From IMG/VR virus record IMGVR_UViG_3300033406_000027, positions 1-33,969 of that record: a stretch of DNA of 33,969 bases; one strand, written 5' to 3'. The translations under genes were made by a program, and so were the position numbers. Source of the DNA: a virus (taxonomy: Duplodnaviria; Caudoviricetes). Below are positions 7,839 through 33,949 of this stretch, piece by piece. The notes under the pieces were generated by a model, which saw only the letters and a list, made by a program, of their open reading frames with translations, did no database searches and was not told the origin of the DNA. The first letter of the stretch is position 1; each line of letters starts with the position of its first letter.

Positions 7839-9086
7839 TTGGGGTTATTAAGAAAATTTAAAAATTCCTTGGCCGATTATATTAGTAAATTTCTTGCTGG
7901 CGATGATGTTAGCGAATACTCTGGGATTGGTGCTATTAATGTTGATCGAGAAGTAGCAATGAAGTATTCCGCGGTGTTTTCTTGCGTTCGGGTGCTTAGT
8001 GAGACATTCGCTACCTGCCCGGCTATACTGTACCGGAAAAACAAAGACGGTACACGGGGAGTTTCAACAGACCTGCAGGTGTACGACATTTTGCATAATC
8101 AGCCAAATGATATGATGGCTCCATTTGGGTTTAAAGAAACCCAGCTTATTAGCTTAAACACAGGTGGCAATTCTGTATGTTTAAAATTGGTAAATAAGTA
8201 TAATGATTTGGTTGGGTTATGGCCTTTAGAGTGGACAAAACTTCAGATCAAAAGCGAGAATGGGCAAATATCATACAAGTATCAGGATGGGGCCAACGAA
8301 AAAACGTATTCAAGAAGCGAAATATTTCATATTCCTGGTCTTAGTTTTGATGGGTTAATTGGTGTTTCACCTATTGAATACATGGCGAGTGCCATTACAT
8401 TAGGGTTGTCATATGAGAAATTTGGGGTTAGGTTCTATCAAAACGGCGCGAATGCAAGCGGCGTTTTTTCATTTCCAGACGTTCTGGGAGATGTGGCGTA
8501 TGAACGACTCAAGAAAGATCTGACAAAAAACTATACTGGTCTAGCTAACACTGGGAAACCAATATTATTGGAGTCCGGTGGTTCATTTAATCAGCTAACA
8601 ATCAAGCCTGTTGATGCACAACTTTTAGAATCGAAAAAATTTCAGATTGAAGACGTTGCTCGATGTTATCGGGTTCCGCTCCATTTGATCCAGAACTTGG
8701 ATAAGGCAACAAACAACAACATTGAGCATCAATCCTTGGAATTTATCATGTACACCATGCTTCCTTGGTTTAAGAGATATGAGGAGAATGCCAACGCCCA
8801 GTTATTGACGCCGAAAGAGCGAAAAGCTGGGTATTATATTGAGTTCAAAATGGACGGTCTGTTGCGTGGTGACATGGCGTCTCGATCAGCTGCTTATGCT
8901 GCCGGACGACAGTGGGGTTGGTTGTCGGTCAATGATATCCGCCGATTGGAAAATATGCCGCCGGTTGAAAATGGCGACATATACTTACAGCCGTCAAACA
9001 TGATTGAAGCCGGGAAACTGCCACAACAAAATGGATCCCAAGCGTTAGCAGCAGAAATCCATGAACTGATAGGGGAGAGGAGGTAA
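7839..9086 (+). CDS. Portal protein (HK97 family)
   Basis: AVFSCVRVLSE, GVSPI, NNIEHQSLEF and LLRGD; TTG 7839 after AAGGAGGTG. Confidence 0.96.
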   Translation: MGLLRKFKNSLADYISKFLAGDDVSEYSGIGAINVDREVAMKYSAVFSCVRVLSETFATCPAILYRKNKDGTRGVSTDLQVYDILHNQPNDMMAPFGFKETQLISLNTGGNSVCLKLVNKYNDLVGLWPLEWTKLQIKSENGQISYKYQDGANEKTYSRSEIFHIPGLSFDGLIGVSPIEYMASAITLGLSYEKFGVRFYQNGANASGVFSFPDVLGDVAYERLKKDLTKNYTGLANTGKPILLESGGSFNQLTIKPVDAQLLESKKFQIEDVARCYRVPLHLIQNLDKATNNNIEHQSLEFIMYTMLPWFKRYEENANAQLLTPKERKAGYYIEFKMDGLLRGDMASRSAAYAAGRQWGWLSVNDIRRLENMPPVENGDIYLQPSNMIEAGKLPQQNGSQALAAEIHELIGERR

Positions 9087-9089
9087 GTT

Positions 9090-9842
9090 ATGAAAAAGAA
9101 AAAGTTTTGGGAGTTTAAGGCTCAGGCTGATAATGCCGGGGAATTATTGCTGTATGATGAAATCAGCGATTCGAGTTGGTGGGGTGATGAGGTAACACCG
9201 AAGCAGTTTAAAAAGGACATGGATGCATTAGGCGATATATCGTCGCTAAATATTTATATTAATTCAGGCGGCGGCGACGTATTTGCCGGGCAGGCTATTT
9301 ATTCAATGCTCAAACGTCATTCTGCCACAAAAAATGTGTATATTGACGGTCTTGCGGCTAGTATGGCATCGGTAATAGCCATGGTCGGTGACAATGTGTA
9401 TATGCCTAGTAACGCTATGCTGATGGTCCATAATCCATGGACCATTGCTATGGGTAATGCCAACGATTTCAGGGCCATGGCCGACACGCTTGATAAGATC
9501 CGCGAAAGTTCAATTGCTGTCTATCGCGACAAAACCGGCATGGAAGACGATGAGATAATTAAATTACTGGATGCCGAAACATGGATGACCGCGGAGGATG
9601 CTGTTGCTATGGGGTTTGCTGATGAGATTGAAGGAGGAAAACAGGTTGCTGCATCGATATCAGATGGTCAGCTTATTTTGGGCAGCATGGCGTTTGACTT
9701 GTCGAGGTTTAAAAATATTCCGGCGGCTAAAATTCAATTTTATGCGCCGCCACCAGAACCCGATCCCCCGGGTGTAATCCCGGTTGATATATACGCAGAA
9801 AAATGCCGGATGAATGAAAGGAGATTAAAACATGGATTTTAA
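9090..9842 (+). CDS. ClpP-like head maturation protease
   Basis: INSGGGDVF, GLAASMAS, MVHNPW and ETWMTAEDAV. Confidence 0.95.
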   Translation: MKKKKFWEFKAQADNAGELLLYDEISDSSWWGDEVTPKQFKKDMDALGDISSLNIYINSGGGDVFAGQAIYSMLKRHSATKNVYIDGLAASMASVIAMVGDNVYMPSNAMLMVHNPWTIAMGNANDFRAMADTLDKIRESSIAVYRDKTGMEDDEIIKLLDAETWMTAEDAVAMGFADEIEGGKQVAASISDGQLILGSMAFDLSRFKNIPAAKIQFYAPPPEPDPPGVIPVDIYAEKCRMNERRLKHGF

Positions 9843-27126: not shown

Positions 27127-27420
27127 TTGGCTAAAATTCGTTGTATTAAAAATGAGCATAACCCGGACCGTGAAGAATACGTGTTCCGCTGTCCAGGATG
27201 TAATGATTTGCATGTGATCAATAATACTTGGACGTTTAACGGTGACGTTGGTAAACCGACATTTAACCCCTCGGTATTGGTAAACCGTAATAAACTTAAC
27301 CCGGCTATGCCAGTGTGTCACAGCTTTATTCGTGACGGTAAAATCCAATTTTTAAATGATTGTACCCATGGACTTGCAGGCCAAACCGTTGATTTAGATG
27401 ATTTTATTGGAGGGGATTAG
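27127..27420 (+). CDS. DUF6527-like metal-binding protein
   Basis: FRCPGC..H, WTFNGD..KPTFNPSVL and CHSFIRDGKIQFLNDCTH. Confidence 0.75.
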   Translation: MAKIRCIKNEHNPDREEYVFRCPGCNDLHVINNTWTFNGDVGKPTFNPSVLVNRNKLNPAMPVCHSFIRDGKIQFLNDCTHGLAGQTVDLDDFIGGD

Positions 27421-27421
27421 T

Positions 27422-27886
27422 ATGGCAAAGGTAAATGTGTTATTTTCCTATCCGGTTACCGAATTTGGCAAAATAATTGATTGGGCAGAAGGTCCCGGCT
27501 CAGACCCAAGTCACGCCGCTATTATTATGCTTGGTGGAATATTAGAAGCGCTTGATAATGGATTTGTGAAGTCGCCGCTAACTGCCTATGATGGATTTAA
27601 GACGACGATATTATCCGTTGATGTGCCGAATATAGCAGAGGCGGAAAAAGAGGCACAGAAATTATTGGGTACTCCTTATGGATATCGGGCATGTCTCGAC
27701 GGCGGTCTACACGATCTTTTAGGTGTGACTGTGCCAGGTGATGGTGAAAAGACGGTTGACTGTTCGGAGGCAGTATGCAGAATTCTACAGGCAGGTGGAT
27801 TGGAGATATTTACGGATTTTTCAGCAGATAATGTTACGCCGGCGGATTTGCTGAAGAAGTTGCAGACGTTGGCGGTGGGATTATGA
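27422..27886 (+). CDS. Permuted papain-like (YiiX/YaeF, NlpC/P60-related) peptidase or amidase
   Basis: His (SHAAI) precedes Cys (DCSEAV); GTPYGY and VTPADL; ATG 27422 after GGAGGGG. Confidence 0.8.
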   Translation: MAKVNVLFSYPVTEFGKIIDWAEGPGSDPSHAAIIMLGGILEALDNGFVKSPLTAYDGFKTTILSVDVPNIAEAEKEAQKLLGTPYGYRACLDGGLHDLLGVTVPGDGEKTVDCSEAVCRILQAGGLEIFTDFSADNVTPADLLKKLQTLAVGL

Positions 27887-28102: not shown

Positions 28103-29575
28103 TTAACCTTGCGTTGTCGAAAACCATATACTTACATCATCATCCATACCTTTCCATGCCATATGCAAATTACCCTTATATTCCGCTAAGGCGGGAGAGT
28201 CGCTTGTACCCCGCCCTTCTCCCGCTAACTGTTGAGGCATCCATGGTACCGAAAAATTATTATTATAATAAGAAACCCACATTCTTGTGTCGCCGCCACA
28301 ACCTTGCCAAGCCATATATAATTTGTTGTGAAAGACTGCCAACGCAGGTGCGTGACTAGTGCATATATCTCTGACTTTGCCTGGTATCTTCCATAATGAT
28401 CCATCAAAATTTGAATAATATATAGCAGGATCATCACCTATACTTCTCCAAGCCATGTATAGTTTCCCATTCCAGGATGCCAAGGTAGGTGCCTGGCTTG
28501 TACCTTGTTCTCCGATTGCTATTTGTTGTGGTTTCCATGATGCTCCATCAAAATAAGAAAACCATATTTTTGTATCGCCGCCACAACCTTGCCAAGCCAT
28601 GTAAAGTTTACCATTATAAAAGGCTAAGGCAGGCACATGACTTGTTCCAAAATCCCTAGCTTTTTGTTGTGGTTTCCATAATGACCCATCAAATTCTGAA
28701 TAATATATAGCAGGATCATCACCTATGCTTCTCCAAGCCATGTATAGTTTCCCATTATAAGTTGCCAAGGCAGGAGCATTGCTTTTACCAAAATCACCAA
28801 GCGCTCTTTGTTGTGGCGCCCATAAGTCTCCATCATAATAGCTAAACCACATACCATCATCGCCACAACCTCGCCAAGCCATGTATAATTTGTCTTTATA
28901 GACAGCTAATGCAGGGGCATTGTGTGAGCCTCCAGATATCTCAGTTGCTTTTTGTTCCGTCCAGGAAATCTCTAGTGGAGCAACTTCTAAGTTTGACTCT
29001 ACCCAATAATCAGAATTATCTCCACAAAACGATGGTGATTCGGAACCAGGGTAATGTAAATTATATGATTTAGTGTGATTTTTAATATCAGAAGATTTGA
29101 AGGTTAACGTATCAGCAGCGACTATCCCATCGCAGCGGCCTGGCTTAAAGTAACTACCTAAGATATCAATTATTATACCTGTAGCTACCCCAAGAATTGT
29201 ACCTATTGGTCCACCTAAAGACCCGATAGTTGCGCCAGTTACTGCTGAGCTCGCTGCTTTTGCGGCTAACTGAGTTGCAGCTTGTTCGAGAATAACAAGA
29301 TCACCATCATTAACATTTGCGACGATGTATCCAAGAGAGATATTCTGATCTGAATCAGGGCCAACAAAAAATTCAATACTATGCTGGTTATCAATATTTT
29401 GTTGATCTAAATCATAATATCCGCTTTTCCGGTCCCCTAGGTTAAACGAAGTTTTCGACACTTCTGTACCATTTATGGTAGCTACTATTGAAACACTTAG
29501 TGTATCATTTAATGCAGAACGTAATTCATTGATTTTTATTGCTTTCATAGTAAATTTATATTTTTCTTTATCCAC
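28103..29575 (-). CDS. Moron: N-terminal glycine-zipper-containing domain plus six-bladed beta-propeller (fucose-lectin-like repeats)
   Basis: Six P(A/T)LA.....L(Y/H)MAW repeats; GATIGSLGGPIGTILGVATG; AT-rich; opposite strand. Confidence 0.8.
   Translation of the reverse strand: MDKEKYKFTMKAIKINELRSALNDTLSVSIVATINGTEVSKTSFNLGDRKSGYYDLDQQNIDNQHSIEFFVGPDSDQNISLGYIVANVNDGDLVILEQAATQLAAKAASSAVTGATIGSLGGPIGTILGVATGIIIDILGSYFKPGRCDGIVAADTLTFKSSDIKNHTKSYNLHYPGSESPSFCGDNSDYWVESNLEVAPLEISWTEQKATEISGGSHNAPALAVYKDKLYMAWRGCGDDGMWFSYYDGDLWAPQQRALGDFGKSNAPALATYNGKLYMAWRSIGDDPAIYYSEFDGSLWKPQQKARDFGTSHVPALAFYNGKLYMAWQGCGGDTKIWFSYFDGASWKPQQIAIGEQGTSQAPTLASWNGKLYMAWRSIGDDPAIYYSNFDGSLWKIPGKVRDICTSHAPALAVFHNKLYMAWQGCGGDTRMWVSYYNNNFSVPWMPQQLAGEGRGTSDSPALAEYKGNLHMAWKGMDDDVSIWFSTTQG
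28290..28756. repeat. 285-bp-period internal duplication (two-blade unit)
   Basis: 28412-28471 vs 28697-28756 differ at 1 nt; 28290-28315 is identical to 28575-28600. Confidence 0.9.
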
Positions 29576-29814: not shown

Positions 29815-30045
29815 ATGGGTAAAACATTCGTTGAGATAACAGCAATGCATTGTGTGGATGGCTCGGTTCGTCCTCTGACTCTGAAATGGCAAGATGGCCG
29901 AGTGTTCGAAATTGATCGGCTTATTGATGTACGCAAAGCTGCTTCTCTAAATGCTGGTGGCTTGGGGATACGATACACTTGCAAGATAATGGGTAAGCAG
30001 ATTTATTTGTTTGATGAAGAAGGCCGTTGGTTTATTGAGAAATGA
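29815..30045 (+). CDS. 76-aa conserved Firmicute protein, predicted SOS-inducible
   Basis: PLTLKWQDGRVFEIDRLIDVRKAASLNAGGLGIRYTC; own promoter, SOS box and terminator. Confidence 0.85.
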   Translation: MGKTFVEITAMHCVDGSVRPLTLKWQDGRVFEIDRLIDVRKAASLNAGGLGIRYTCKIMGKQIYLFDEEGRWFIEK

Positions 30046-30754: not shown

Positions 30755-30967
30755 ATGTTGAAAAATAAATTGAAACTGATAAGATTAGAATTTGCTGTTA
30801 AGCATGGACACGACGTGTCACAAACGGAGTTTGCTGATTATTTAGGAGTAAAAATATCACAATATAATCGATATGAATTGCAAAAACAACAGCCGGAAAT
30901 TGAAACTGCTTTTCGGATATCACGCAAATTAGGCTGCAAAGTTGATGACTTATTTGATTACGAATAA
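30755..30967 (+). CDS. XRE-family HTH regulator
   Basis: SQTEFADYLGV..SQYNRYE...QPEIETAFRISRKLGCKVDDLF. Confidence 0.92.
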   Translation: MLKNKLKLIRLEFAVKHGHDVSQTEFADYLGVKISQYNRYELQKQQPEIETAFRISRKLGCKVDDLFDYE

Positions 30968-31063
30968 GTCTATTTTTTCATCTATATTATTCCCTAGGAC
31001 ATACATTATTTATACTCTTAAGCAATAGATATATACCAAGAAGTTGAAGGAGGTATATACCTA

Positions 31064-31258
31064 ATGGCACAACAAATAACGGTCAAATTACCTGACGCGG
31101 TGCACGCATATTTGTTACGGCAAGGTGATCCAGAGGAGCATTTAGTGACTTTAGTTACCCAGGATATGCTTATGAATAATGCTCGCAATTTCATGGGCAT
31201 TGACGAACCAAAACGTCGCCGCCGGAGCGCAGCCAGTTCAGGAAGTGATGACGAATGA
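31064..31258 (+). CDS. Small ribbon-helix-helix-like protein
   Basis: AAGGAGGT RBS; QITVKLPDAVHAYL strand-helix pattern; ATGA coupling to the FtsK gene. Confidence 0.6.
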   Translation: MAQQITVKLPDAVHAYLLRQGDPEEHLVTLVTQDMLMNNARNFMGIDEPKRRRRSAASSGSDDE

Positions 31259-32391
31259 GTGAATCGAGTCTACTGCAACCGCTACTTAATCGGGCAAAAA
31301 AGAAGATCGCTCAAATGGTTGGGCGTGAGACTCCACTAATTGTCCGCGAAGTTATTGATGCACTGTGGGAGGAAAACCGTAGGCCACTGATCCACAAGGA
31401 AGAAAAAACAGGGGCGGGGTGGGACTTTGTTATTACCCTGCCCCCATCCCTCTCTCACCAGGACTTTATTAAGAAGCTAGACTATTTCAAAGACCATACC
31501 GGGATACAAAACATTGAAGTCAAACGCCAAGGCAAAGGCATTTTTATGCGCTTTATCGATGACACTCTACAGGACTACTACGAGTATGATTGGCAATATC
31601 CAAAGAAAGGTACTCTGCCGATCCCTCTAGGCTATACGCCTCAGGGACTGGTCACAACCGATCTGGCCGACATACCCCATGTACTGGTGGCCGGCACGAC
31701 TGGCGGGGGAAAAAGTAATATGCTGCATGTTTGGATTAACTCATTATTAAATCTGCCGGCCCCGCCGCTGATGGTTGTTATCGATTTGAAAATGGCTGAG
31801 TATGCTTATTTAAAAAATCACTTGGCGCTGATTGTAGATCCCGACAATGCTAGGAATATGCTTGCGTCAATGGTCCGCGAAATGCGCCGACGGCAAGAAT
31901 GTTTTATGGCCACACTAACCGTCAACATCAAAAAATACAACAGCCATTATCCCAATGAGGCAATGCGGCACATTGTATGCATCGTTGACGAACTTGGCGA
32001 GTTAGGAGATAAAAGAGCATTGGGGCATTTAGATAGTTTGCTCCGGCTCTCCCGATCGGCAGGGTTTTCTTTTGTGCTGGCAACACAACGGCCCAGTAGC
32101 ACGTTTTTGGCTGAAAAATCATTCGGGGATTTAAAGGCTAATCTACGTGGTCGCTTGGCGCTGGGCGTGACGGACAATATCAATAGTAAGATTATTCTCG
32201 ATGATACTAGGGCCGCAACTATGGCCGATTTGCCGGGCCGGGCGATGTGGAAGTTAGGAAATAAGTTCACCGAAATACAAACGCCTTATCTGGATCCAGA
32301 GAGCGTGGAGGTAAGAAAAAGATTGACGGCGCTACCAAGGCAGGTGATATTTGATGAATCACCAACAGCAATCCAAAGCCCGCGATTTTGA
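31255..32391 (+). CDS. FtsK/SpoIIIE-family DNA translocase ATPase (motor only)
   Basis: PHVLVAGTTGGGKS, IDLKMAE, CIVDELGEL, LATQRPS and LPGRA; no TM segment or gamma domain visible. Confidence 0.93.
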   Translation: MSESSLLQPLLNRAKKKIAQMVGRETPLIVREVIDALWEENRRPLIHKEEKTGAGWDFVITLPPSLSHQDFIKKLDYFKDHTGIQNIEVKRQGKGIFMRFIDDTLQDYYEYDWQYPKKGTLPIPLGYTPQGLVTTDLADIPHVLVAGTTGGGKSNMLHVWINSLLNLPAPPLMVVIDLKMAEYAYLKNHLALIVDPDNARNMLASMVREMRRRQECFMATLTVNIKKYNSHYPNEAMRHIVCIVDELGELGDKRALGHLDSLLRLSRSAGFSFVLATQRPSSTFLAEKSFGDLKANLRGRLALGVTDNINSKIILDDTRAATMADLPGRAMWKLGNKFTEIQTPYLDPESVEVRKRLTALPRQVIFDESPTAIQSPRF

Positions 32392-32884
32392 AATAGTAAA
32401 GGCTTTAGAGTCATGGCGAGCGCTATCGACGCGGCAGTTACAGGTGATGTTTTTTCCATCGCTAAGAGTTGCTCGCCGTAGATTGAGTATTTTAGCCGAG
32501 CGCAATAAGATAAAGTTTATCCGCGAATATGATAACCCTGCATGGTATTTCATTAGTAAAGAGCCTAAACAGATTGAGCGATACATCACACTTAACTGGA
32601 TTCGTTTATGGCTTTATAAAAACAAGAAATGCCAGGAATGGATATATGATATCGAAACCTATAGTTCACAGGCACGAGCCTTTGACCCGTGGGAAGGTAA
32701 ATGGACTGAAATTAGTGTTGAGTATAATCCGGCGGGTAATTTTGAAAATGAGACGGAAAGTGCATGGAGCTTCGGAACAATTATAAAGGAAGAAAAAGAA
32801 AAAATAAAACGGCTAATGGTAGCTGAAACACCAAAAAAAGGTGTCCTTACCATGGCCGAAATTATGGAGGCTTTTGCGTTATGA
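32351..32884 (+). CDS. Replication-relaxation (Replic_Relax)-like winged-helix protein
   Basis: RDFEIVKALESWRALSTRQLQVMFFPS.RVARRRL N-terminus; overlaps the FtsK 3' end. Confidence 0.72.
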   Translation: MMNHQQQSKARDFEIVKALESWRALSTRQLQVMFFPSLRVARRRLSILAERNKIKFIREYDNPAWYFISKEPKQIERYITLNWIRLWLYKNKKCQEWIYDIETYSSQARAFDPWEGKWTEISVEYNPAGNFENETESAWSFGTIIKEEKEKIKRLMVAETPKKGVLTMAEIMEAFAL

Positions 32885-33168
32885 AGGTTGTTGTTATGGT
32901 ACTTACAGCAGTTTTTGTTCCGGCTCTAGCCTTTGCCGGGCTTGCCAGCGTGATTGGTGAAACGTTTGGACCAGGCGGCCCAGCGCATCCGGTGGTTTGG
33001 TTGATAGGGTTGTCCGTTGGTCGCTGGCTGATCAAGACGGTTGTCTCTATTACGGGAGGTTCGTCCGGGCAGTGGATTGATATGATTGTGCGCTGCGCGG
33101 AGATCGGGATTGTTATAGCGGCGGTCTATGCCTTGCTAAATACGGCTTTTAACCTACTGGGGTTGTAG
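32881..33168 (+). CDS. Small membrane protein with a SpoIIIAC-like helical hairpin
   Basis: ATGA coupling; GGAGG RBS; WLIGLSV..LIKTVV...G...GQWIDMI pattern. Confidence 0.7.
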   Translation: MKVVVMVLTAVFVPALAFAGLASVIGETFGPGGPAHPVVWLIGLSVGRWLIKTVVSITGGSSGQWIDMIVRCAEIGIVIAAVYALLNTAFNLLGL

Positions 33169-33280
33169 TTTTCCTTGTACCTTTACCTGTACCCATTATT
33201 GGGGAGGGGGTGTATAGATAAAGCCTCTCCAGTCAGCGAAAAACCTGGAACCTACGAAATGTAAGGGGGGTTATAATGGG

Positions 33281-33646
33281 GTGTATCGAATCATATTGTT
33301 GGTAATGATTTTTTTAATAATTTTTTCGGGCGTTGGGGAATGCTTAAAGAATCCTGTTGATGCGGCGGGTGATACAATCAGGCGTAATATTAACACAGCA
33401 ACGGACGATGTTATTTCGGACTTTAAAGTTTCAATGCATAACACTTGGATGGAAATTAAAGCAGCAATTAGGTCGCTGTTAGGATTTATATTAGAGGTTG
33501 TTACGGTGCTGGCTGTTGGGTGGGCGTTTAGTTTTTTGGTCGATAAGCGCACGGCTAAGATGATTAAGTTAGTGGTTGTGCTGTGCGCGTTTACGGAACT
33601 GATAAGATTGCTAGGTAAGTTTATCGGGTTTGTTGGTGGGAGCTAA
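33281..33646 (+). CDS. Membrane protein (N-terminal TM, helical linker, C-terminal TM hairpin weakly SpoIIIAC-like)
   Basis: AAGGGGGG RBS; three hydrophobic segments. Confidence 0.7.
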   Translation: MYRIILLVMIFLIIFSGVGECLKNPVDAAGDTIRRNINTATDDVISDFKVSMHNTWMEIKAAIRSLLGFILEVVTVLAVGWAFSFLVDKRTAKMIKLVVVLCAFTELIRLLGKFIGFVGGS

Positions 33647-33843: not shown

Positions 33844-33899
33844 AGACTTAGGATCTGGCGCCGCAAGGTGTGGAGGTTCAAGTCCTCTCGCCCGCACCA
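33844..33899 (+). other. attR: 3' portion of tRNA-Leu(TAG), not an intact tRNA
   Basis: AGA-CTTAGGA-TCTGG anticodon arm, long variable arm, GGTTCAAGTCC T-arm, ends ACCA; no 5' half upstream. Confidence 0.9.
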
Positions 33900-33949
33900 A
33901 AATAAAGCGAGACTTACAAACAGCTAGTTTGTAAGTCTCGCTTTATTTT
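33899..33949 (+). terminator. Host tRNA terminator, 23-bp perfect inverted repeat
   Basis: AAAATAAAGCGAGACTTACAAAC-AGCTA-GTTTGTAAGTCTCGCTTTATTTT. Confidence 0.9.

Follow-up and report, generated by a model that had tools for sequence, protein, structure and literature searches.

The closest described counterpart of the gene cassette analyzed here is the phage 'DNA translocation operon' of 0305phi8-36, SPO1, GBSV1 and Gamma/Fah/WBeta (Pathria et al., 2012; PMC3357382). Its authors proposed propagation by DNA translocation in biofilms, a related operon is reported to be dispensable for lytic growth and plaque formation, and the main text of that article never uses the word stem 'spor'. Here, we set out to characterize six genes near the probable right end of a prophage in the IMG/VR virus record IMGVR_UViG_3300033406_000027 (Caudoviricetes), whose 33,969 nucleotides are referred to as the window. 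The genes (Table 1) encode an XRE/Cro-type regulator, a 64-aa protein, an FtsK/TcpA-type motor, a protein derived from the Replic_Relax/MobC family (hereafter RR) and two membrane hairpin proteins, M1 and M2. As in the operon of Pathria et al., a MobC-family gene adjoins a coupling-type ATPase without membrane segment, and separate membrane proteins (M1, M2) are encoded inside a virion-making phage. In contrast, the membrane partners in the window are hairpins of the SpoIIIAC family in place of VirB6 or MreB, the nuclease residues are lost, and the promoters in part of the module family appear to be of the mother-cell type. On the basis of sequence comparisons, we tentatively propose that the cassette pumps phage DNA from the mother cell into the forespore.

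The core of FtsK and Replic_Relax genes is a known, functionally unexplained phage cassette of which the window holds a new variant. New are the SpoIIIAC-family hairpins, the sigmaE-type promoters, the spoIIIAC-limited occurrence and the clade-wide nuclease loss. Elsewhere, the pair has been annotated as plasmid-segregation genes (PMC9658697, PMC11526630), with a TrbC/VirB2 gene annotated beside it in Bacillus pumilus phages (PMC9658697). SpoIIIE homologues are reported for 21 Bastille-like Bacillus phages (PMC4528723; PMC3601020), and spoIIIE homologues are described as enriched in phages of spore-formers, where entrapment was suggested (PMC10294663). In the full-text literature, with most subscription journals outside its scope, no paper linking the cassette to SpoIIIAC or sigmaE was found. 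The cassette is similar to CloDF13 MobB/MobC and pCW3 TcpA in that its ATPase is closest to a solved coupling protein and a PF13814-family gene is adjacent. It differs from systems of coupling protein and MobC by an unanchored ATPase, the lack of catalytic PD-(D/E)xK residues and the lack of mating-channel genes; for the streptococcal elements surveyed, TcpA is described as never found with MobC (PMC5357655). With SpoIIIE and FtsK it shares a motor domain with Walker A, Walker B, QRP and GR motifs but not the membrane domain, linker and gamma domain, and anchor and DNA recognition would instead be supplied by separate genes. Streptomyces TraB/Spd likewise combines an FtsK-like motor and small membrane genes with no relaxase activity (for the window, as judged from sequence). 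However, the TraB model scores only 32.6 of 800 bits on the window motor, missing the NF041214 cut-off, the motor has neither membrane anchor nor C-terminal winged helix, and the hosts are endospore formers. With SpoIIIAC/AD of the SpoIIIA-SpoIIQ channel, finally, the hairpins have in common family-level homology and, in part of the family, a similar sigmaE-type promoter, whereas they are very divergent, carry leaders, lie outside the spoIIIA operon and are paired with a DNA motor.

An earlier note on this DNA had read the six open reading frames (ORFs) as a DNA-translocation module. All six lie where it had placed them, after the lysis genes, and the overlaps it had seen among four of them (31064-33168) measured 4 nt (64-aa and motor genes), 41 nt (motor and RR genes; 38 nt with the ATG at 32354, which has a better ribosome site than the start at 32351) and 4 nt (RR and M1 genes). 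M2 is separated from M1 by a gap of 112 bp. The nearest relative of the module, locus L082, is located in genome G001, and its motor is 86-87% identical to that of the window. In comparison with L082, the proportions of nonsynonymous (pN) and synonymous (pS) differences were 0.06-0.18 and 0.57-0.75 for the six genes, and all frames are intact. Because pN is far below pS, the six genes are under purifying selection and none of them is a decaying relic. The M1-M2 gap (33169-33280) aligns to L082 without indels and contains another sequence that might be a -10 box of the mother-cell type; inspection by eye revealed no conserved ORF in it.

Table 1. Features of the cassette and its flanks in the window
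Feature	Position	Strand	Evidence or remark
XRE/Cro-type HTH regulator, 70 aa	30755-30967	+	HTH_3 E 3.3e-11
Conserved non-coding block, candidate sigmaE-type promoter	30984-31045	+	56/62 bases identical to L082
CAT-ending -35 element	31000-31006	+	candidate sigmaE-type promoter
-10 element	31023-31031	+	about 40 bp ahead of first gene
Small protein, 64 aa, possibly ribbon-helix-helix	31064-31258	+	in slot of relatives' ParR-like genes
FtsK/TcpA-type ATPase, 378 aa, no transmembrane segment, no C-terminal gamma domain	31255-32391	+	PF01580 E 3e-19
RR, Replic_Relax/MobC-derived protein, 177 aa; intact winged helix, nuclease residues lost	32351-32884 (likely start ATG 32354)	+	family HMM E 5.4e-21
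M1, signal-like leader and two-helix membrane hairpin, distant SpoIIIAC-family member	32881-33168	+	family-level link to host SpoIIIAC
M2, M1 paralogue with longer leader	33281-33646	+	M1/M2 alignments match at 92.5%
3' half of tRNA-Leu(TAG)-like gene, then hairpin; probable right attachment site	33846-33901 (about)	+	weak Rfam tRNA match, E 0.81

The two membrane proteins had been called SpoIIIAC-like, which holds at the level of the family but not for a direct match, as neither M1 nor M2 matched any SpoIIIAC model (PF06686, TIGR02848). An early comparison with five host SpoIIIAC sequences was weak (34% and 23%). A hidden Markov model (HMM) of 47 phage hairpins, trained without any host sequence and searched against 16,568 ORFs including 374 small two-helix decoys, retrieved host SpoIIIAC proteins as its best non-module matches (E 1.9e-8 and 1.5e-6), with three others at E 0.2-0.5. 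Alignment of the phage hairpin family with host SpoIIIAC by hhalign gave 87%, and the hairpin of one relative, L130, exceeded the PF06686 cut-off (25.7 vs 24 bits). The hairpins of the window clade are tied to SpoIIIAC via the Clostridia-like group (94%, then 84%). Since the host-free HMM, hhalign and the PF06686 match agree, sequence homology indicates that the hairpin family descends from SpoIIIAC or has a common ancestor with it, and the hairpins may mimic SpoIIIAC. In the structural model, the mature part of M1 forms helices at residues 2-10, 17-39 and 44-74; the fold search retrieved generic hairpins only (best Z 7.6), and a VirB2/TrbC pilin profile hit one relative at E 0.64. In all four cases checked, relatives of M2 carry a fused M23 peptidase whose HxGxD and HLH motifs are intact. 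The phage-hairpin HMM also matched a large membrane gene after spoIIIAD (L145:273-1463, probable SpoIIIAE; E 0.0013), a hint that SpoIIIAE contains AC-like repeats.

The FtsK/SpoIIIE motor recognized in the earlier note was borne out by a PF01580 match over the cut-off and by intact Walker motifs (Walker A, GTTGGGKS; Walker B, IVCIVDE). The invariants of the family are present (G147, G152, K153, D245, E246, Q278-R279-P280, G328-R329), no hydrophobic segment precedes the motor domain, and the protein stops about 30 residues past it. Among solved structures, a 'DNA translocase coupling protein' comes closest (6O1W-Z, E 2e-53), which we take to be TcpA of Clostridium perfringens pCW3; FtsK follows (8e-42), and this ranking points to a conjugation-type origin of the motor. 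Of 36 modules whose motor lacks a membrane segment, 32 have hairpin genes, as compared with 3 of 10 modules whose motor has one; 15 of the 61 modules, lying near an edge, were omitted from these counts, and the membrane-bearing motors without hairpin genes are largely a single clade. The N-terminal membrane hairpin of Clostridium-type motors was considered as a homologue of the M family and rejected (hhalign 1% or less).

The RR protein had been described as Replic_Relax-like. The winged helix and the membership in the family were confirmed, whereas the score with Pfam Replic_Relax stayed below the cut-off (16.8 vs 25.3 bits, N-terminal part only) and the nuclease residues are gone. PF13814 is listed as a member of the PD-(D/E)xK superfamily (PMC3424549). 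The His, R-x-D and E-x-D/E residues of this fold are kept in 12 of 21 matched RR rows; His and R-x-D are missing in all nine rows of the window clade (the window and eight relatives) vs retained in 12/12 of the others. Rows of the window clade are also without most of the C-terminal part. Because the nuclease residues are lost across the whole clade, RR is not classed as a relaxase and, judged by these residues, is no working MobC enzyme in the window clade. The predicted local distance difference test (pLDDT) value of the RR model is above 90 at residues 1-80 and below 50 in a disordered tail (residues 130-154), the fold search yielded winged helices only (E above 0.001), and the gene is selected in both halves when compared with L082. 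RR may therewith act as a DNA-binding adaptor. In a Pelosinus metagenome-assembled genome (MAG), an intact RR is fused in frame to M1 (L088:7007-7957, 316 aa), a single case that could be due to an indel. Seven elements of spore-forming Firmicutes (L343, L344, L345, L349, L350, L354, L355) carry one or two RR-like genes by a membrane-bearing protein of 600-780 aa and no motor of the window's family; actin-like and small adaptor genes are present as well in some of them.

The non-coding block ahead of the 64-aa gene is conserved in L082 though synonymous sites are near saturation. Within it, two matrices trained on host promoters chose the same site, and the corresponding L082 site scored 5.7 and 9.4 bits. 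An alternative -10 element at 31000-31007 is not preferred, its last base being lost in L082. A spaced motif ending in CATAnnnT was noticed by eye ahead of the first gene in many modules. Independently fetched host sigK promoters, anchored on CATA (33 sites), have the consensus TG(A/C)CAGGCAC-17-CATAnnnT, and the geometry at 33/33 sites agrees with that of module promoters such as GGACAGGCAA-17-CATA. The upstream regions of host spoIIIAA (n=40), in a search seeded with CATA, read G(T/G)CAT-15/16-CATATCTA. In Clostridioides difficile, sigK and spoIIIAA are both listed as sigmaE targets (PMC3789822; PMC7438776 Tables S5, S6), and the mother-cell promoters described there share the CATAnnnT-type -10 box (PMC3789822, PMC7438776). 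Scanned zones upstream of the first gene were picked by hand and replaced fixed 500-nt zones, with which a first scan had been uninformative (5/57 top-ranked vs 2.1 expected). With a threshold of 8 bits or more, the sigK matrix matched 10 of 24 Clostridia-like loci vs 4 of 53 controls (p 8e-4). The spoIIIAA matrix, at 9 bits or more, matched 21/63 module vs 17/174 control upstream regions overall, with 14/24 vs 3/53 in Clostridia-like and 4/12 vs 6/42 in Negativicutes-like loci (rank test p 0.026); the bare CATAnnnT occurred in 26/56 module and 32/147 control regions. These counts suggest that matches to host mother-cell sigmaE promoters are enriched in part of the family and that the module is likely switched on in the mother cell by sigmaE, a timing that may also apply to the window's own phage. 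We do not claim a SpoIIID box in the GGACA element; such a reading would depend on the Bacillus subtilis consensus, and the C. difficile consensus given as KRTAACARK differs (PMC5025042). In modules resembling those of the B. cereus group (L034, L035, L040-L043, L046), short direct-repeat arrays lie between the promoter and the first (hairpin) gene and are candidate binding or origin sites.

Co-conservation of the genes, on which the earlier note had made its proposal depend, was observed. In a set of loci retrieved for the most part by motor queries, 81 of 85 RR matches adjoin a motor gene, which corresponds to 61 distinct modules; an RR gene is missing from the majority of the 242 loci in which any FtsK-type gene was matched. 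Bacilli-like loci have the hairpin genes upstream, whereas in Negativicutes- and Peptococcaceae-like loci they lie downstream, and an actin-like ATPase gene with a small ParR-like gene lies upstream in nine loci (L004, L005, L009, L164, L166, L173-175, L178). The same note had asked for a restriction to phages of endospore formers, and among the genomes searched the module occurs solely in those bearing spoIIIAC. In the class of G001, the Negativicutes, 66 of 251 genomes contain spoIIIAC and all five module carriers are among them; when genomes are treated as independent, ignoring shared descent, the difference is 4/65 vs 0/185 without the center genome (p 0.004) and 3/64 vs 0/185 without one genome met earlier as well (p 0.016). 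Two weak matches in the class sample proved to be other elements, and a six-genome class search added nothing. In a sample of the phylum (401 genomes, 312 with spoIIIAC), all seven new modules lie in spoIIIAC-positive genomes. Weak RR matches in G008, G022 and 10 phylum-sample genomes, with no adjacent motor of the window's family, were not counted, and G291, cut by a contig end, was left out. Searching isolated phages with an RR of the B. cereus group returned 26 records, including GBSV1, of which 23 belong to Bacillus, Geobacillus or Cytobacillus, two to SpaA1 and one is labeled Stenotrophomonas. The last scores equally to a Bacillus phage, and SpaA1 is described as almost identical to Bacillus phage BceA1 (PMC4113786). 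An FtsK-type gene stands beside RR in each of the 26 records where annotated. With the intact Peptococcaceae-type RR, no isolate phage was matched. In genome G029, a module-bearing prophage (C1, about 2582400-2629500; L164, L276, L277) is flanked by the host genes sigE and sigG, both intact; its serine recombinase gene ends on the sigE stop codon and its module abuts sigG, and a comparison of two stretches revealed no core of at least 10 nt common to both.

Named relatives of the motor with 47-48% identity stem from Sporomusa sphaeroides, Anaerospora hongkongensis and a Negativicutes MAG. G001, whose class sample contains a Pelosinus genome, encodes SpoIIIAC/AD, SigK and SpoIIID. From these motor relatives and the sporulation genes of G001 we infer that the host of the prophage is likely a spore-forming Negativicutes bacterium. 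G001 itself harbors two different module-bearing prophage regions (L082, L083), each with a nuclease-dead RR gene.

The earlier note had seen the cassette as a second, non-virion route for phage DNA, leading either into the forespore or, TraB-like, from cell to cell. We favor the first option because of the co-conservation, the SpoIIIAC kinship, the spoIIIAC-only occurrence and the mother-cell-type promoters. In the proposed mechanism, sigmaE would transcribe the operon in the mother cell, M1 and M2 would tether the motor to the membrane that engulfs the forespore, and the motor would pump into the forespore the phage DNA that its winged-helix partner RR would pick out; the protein contacts, the DNA substrate, the direction and the use of the SpoIIIA-SpoIIQ channel are all predictions. 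The beneficiary would be unintegrated phage DNA, from fresh infection of a sporulating cell or from excised copies, because integrated copies travel with the chromosome in any case. The association of hairpin genes with membrane-less motors is counted in favor of the forespore pump, as is the addition, in relatives, of actin-like partition genes and of M23 peptidases with intact metal motifs. So are, from the literature, the dispensability of a related operon in lytic growth (PMC3357382) and the enrichment of spoIIIE homologues (PMC10294663). Several observations weigh against it. The promoter site of the window scored at background level, with 3.3 and 5.4 bits vs control medians of 5.2 and 5.1. 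The CATAnnnT motif was first spotted by eye in the same loci, which are related by descent, and a set of seven previously unseen loci gave a non-significant 2/7 vs 4/27 with the spoIIIAA matrix (p 0.18). Matches of the sigK matrix were not significant in Negativicutes-like loci (4/12 vs 6/42, p 0.14), and in Bacilli-like loci neither the sigK matrix (0/20 vs 1/52) nor the spoIIIAA matrix (1/20 vs 4/52) showed enrichment, a blank that is weak as some Bacilli zones are probably misplaced. The module is present in just 5 of 66 spoIIIAC-positive Negativicutes-class genomes, and its distribution in the phylum sample is not significant (7/311 vs 0/89, p 0.17). Direct comparison of the window-clade hairpins with SpoIIIAC by hhalign gave 3%, the motor is nearer to the conjugative coupling protein than to FtsK, and a strand-biased octamer was not evident in this partial 34-kb genome (largest skew 9 vs 6-10 in 20 shuffles). 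In phage Fah, the FtsK gene is described as a delayed gene of ordinary lytic growth (PMC4113786).

Unlikely, although it accounts for the ancestry, is a conjugation-type or TraB-like transfer between cells, in which coupling ATPase, MobC relaxase and pilin-like hairpins would work alone or via the channel of a plasmid or an integrative and conjugative element. The best solved relative of the motor is a coupling protein, C. perfringens plasmids make up 49 of 69 plasmid matches counted by genus, and pilins have the layout of leader and hairpin that is seen in M1. PF13814 equals MobC in the mobilizable elements described (PMC5357655), and both the biofilm proposal (PMC3357382) and the TrbC/VirB2 gene beside the pair in B. 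pumilus phages (PMC9658697) agree with transfer. However, the nuclease residues are gone in 9/9 clade rows while the RR gene is still selected, no VirB4- or VirB6-like gene was recognized around the module, and the TraB model score is low. Transfer would also leave unexplained the SpoIIIAC homology, the mother-cell promoters and the absence from 185 non-sporulating Negativicutes-class genomes.

A general aid to partition seems rather improbable to us. Here, the motor would act at division septa, clearing or segregating phage DNA that is kept outside the chromosome in plasmid-like states; ParM/ParR would take part in some lineages, and no special link to spores would exist. The actin-like and ParR-like genes upstream of nine modules suit this explanation, as does the lytic expression of Fah FtsK (PMC4113786), and the pair has been so interpreted (PMC9658697, PMC11526630). 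On the other hand, the tRNA half at the end of the window is what an integrated prophage would show, and the window holds no partition ATPase; SpoIIIAC-family hairpins and sigmaE-type promoters would be superfluous for vegetative partition. We give a poor chance to interference at the stage of sporulation, with hairpins that alter or block the SpoIIIA-SpoIIQ channel or a motor acting in the mother cell on DNA of the host or of rival phages, and a change in spore yield or an abortive defense as the outcome. It draws on the same promoter and SpoIIIAC evidence, fits the timing and the accessory slot after the lysis genes, and nucleases are intact in other clades; but a conserved ATPase motor and partition partners exceed the needs of sabotage, and the dead nuclease speaks against DNA destruction in the window clade. 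That the cassette is a non-functional relic of a mobilization module, as the lost nuclease residues and the dispensability of a related phage's operon in the laboratory (PMC3357382) might indicate, is very improbable and largely refuted by the selection on all six genes, the intact frames and the conserved promoter block.

The flanking small genes were assigned with mixed success. The XRE gene expected ahead of the module was recovered over the Pfam cut-off; a terminator-like hairpin (30947-30970) spans its stop codon, and it is probably transcribed apart from the module. Similar HTH genes adjoin the module in many relatives, as seen by inspection without counting. The ribbon-helix-helix assignment of the 64-aa protein in the earlier note was not sustained. 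No Pfam, PHROG or NCBIfam family matched, a diverse and weak HMM of 20 same-slot genes gave no match at E 20 or better, and the Atlas contained solely sub-threshold look-alikes; the gene is selected (pN 0.09, pS 0.57 vs L082).

The window begins within the early region and ends shortly past the 3' tRNA half; the integrase end of the prophage is not within it. Terminase-, head-, tail- and lysin-type genes were read from ORF translations, and tape measure, distal tail protein and endolysin had Pfam or PHROG matches. The attR of the earlier note is retained as a probable right attachment site because the window ends just after the tRNA half; neither a partner site nor a full tRNA was found in the window, and the core of the tRNA half occurs there once, without duplicate. 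Several genes between the lysis region and the cassette were noted in passing. A gene for 490 aa (28103-29575, minus strand) with tandem Trp-rich repeats and lower GC (0.40) has no family match over cut-off, is missing from the L001/L082 relative and is regarded as a moron. A 76-aa gene (29815-30045, plus strand) without Pfam or PHROG match closely resembles a gene beside the L164 module (9077-9340). A DUF6527 gene and a 162-aa gene matching phrog_1128 follow the lysis genes (27127-27886), and relatives of both turn up again near other modules.

Phage DNA has long been known inside spores, for example that of CP-51 (PMC4113786), and phage spoIIIE homologues have been proposed as promoters of spore entry (PMC10294663); in the searchable literature, we found no phage machine shown to deliver DNA into spores. 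The genes of the cassette are named, its promoter class and location are predicted, and a nuclease-dead variant occurs naturally; the question of spore entry is therefore directly testable. In its widest form, which we regard as doubtful, the proposal is that a machine dedicated to spore entry is encoded by phages throughout the endospore-forming Firmicutes. A conjugation-derived motor on the mother-cell program would dock via captured SpoIIIAC-type subunits on the feeding-tube channel and inject phage DNA across both forespore membranes; of the relaxase, only a DNA-recognition adaptor would be left, which would serve as a gamma domain in trans. If true, phages would possess an active route into spores that they encode themselves, and the SpoIIIA-SpoIIQ channel would have its first macromolecular cargo; a role in spore entry would also account for the lack of a plaque-assay phenotype in a widespread operon.

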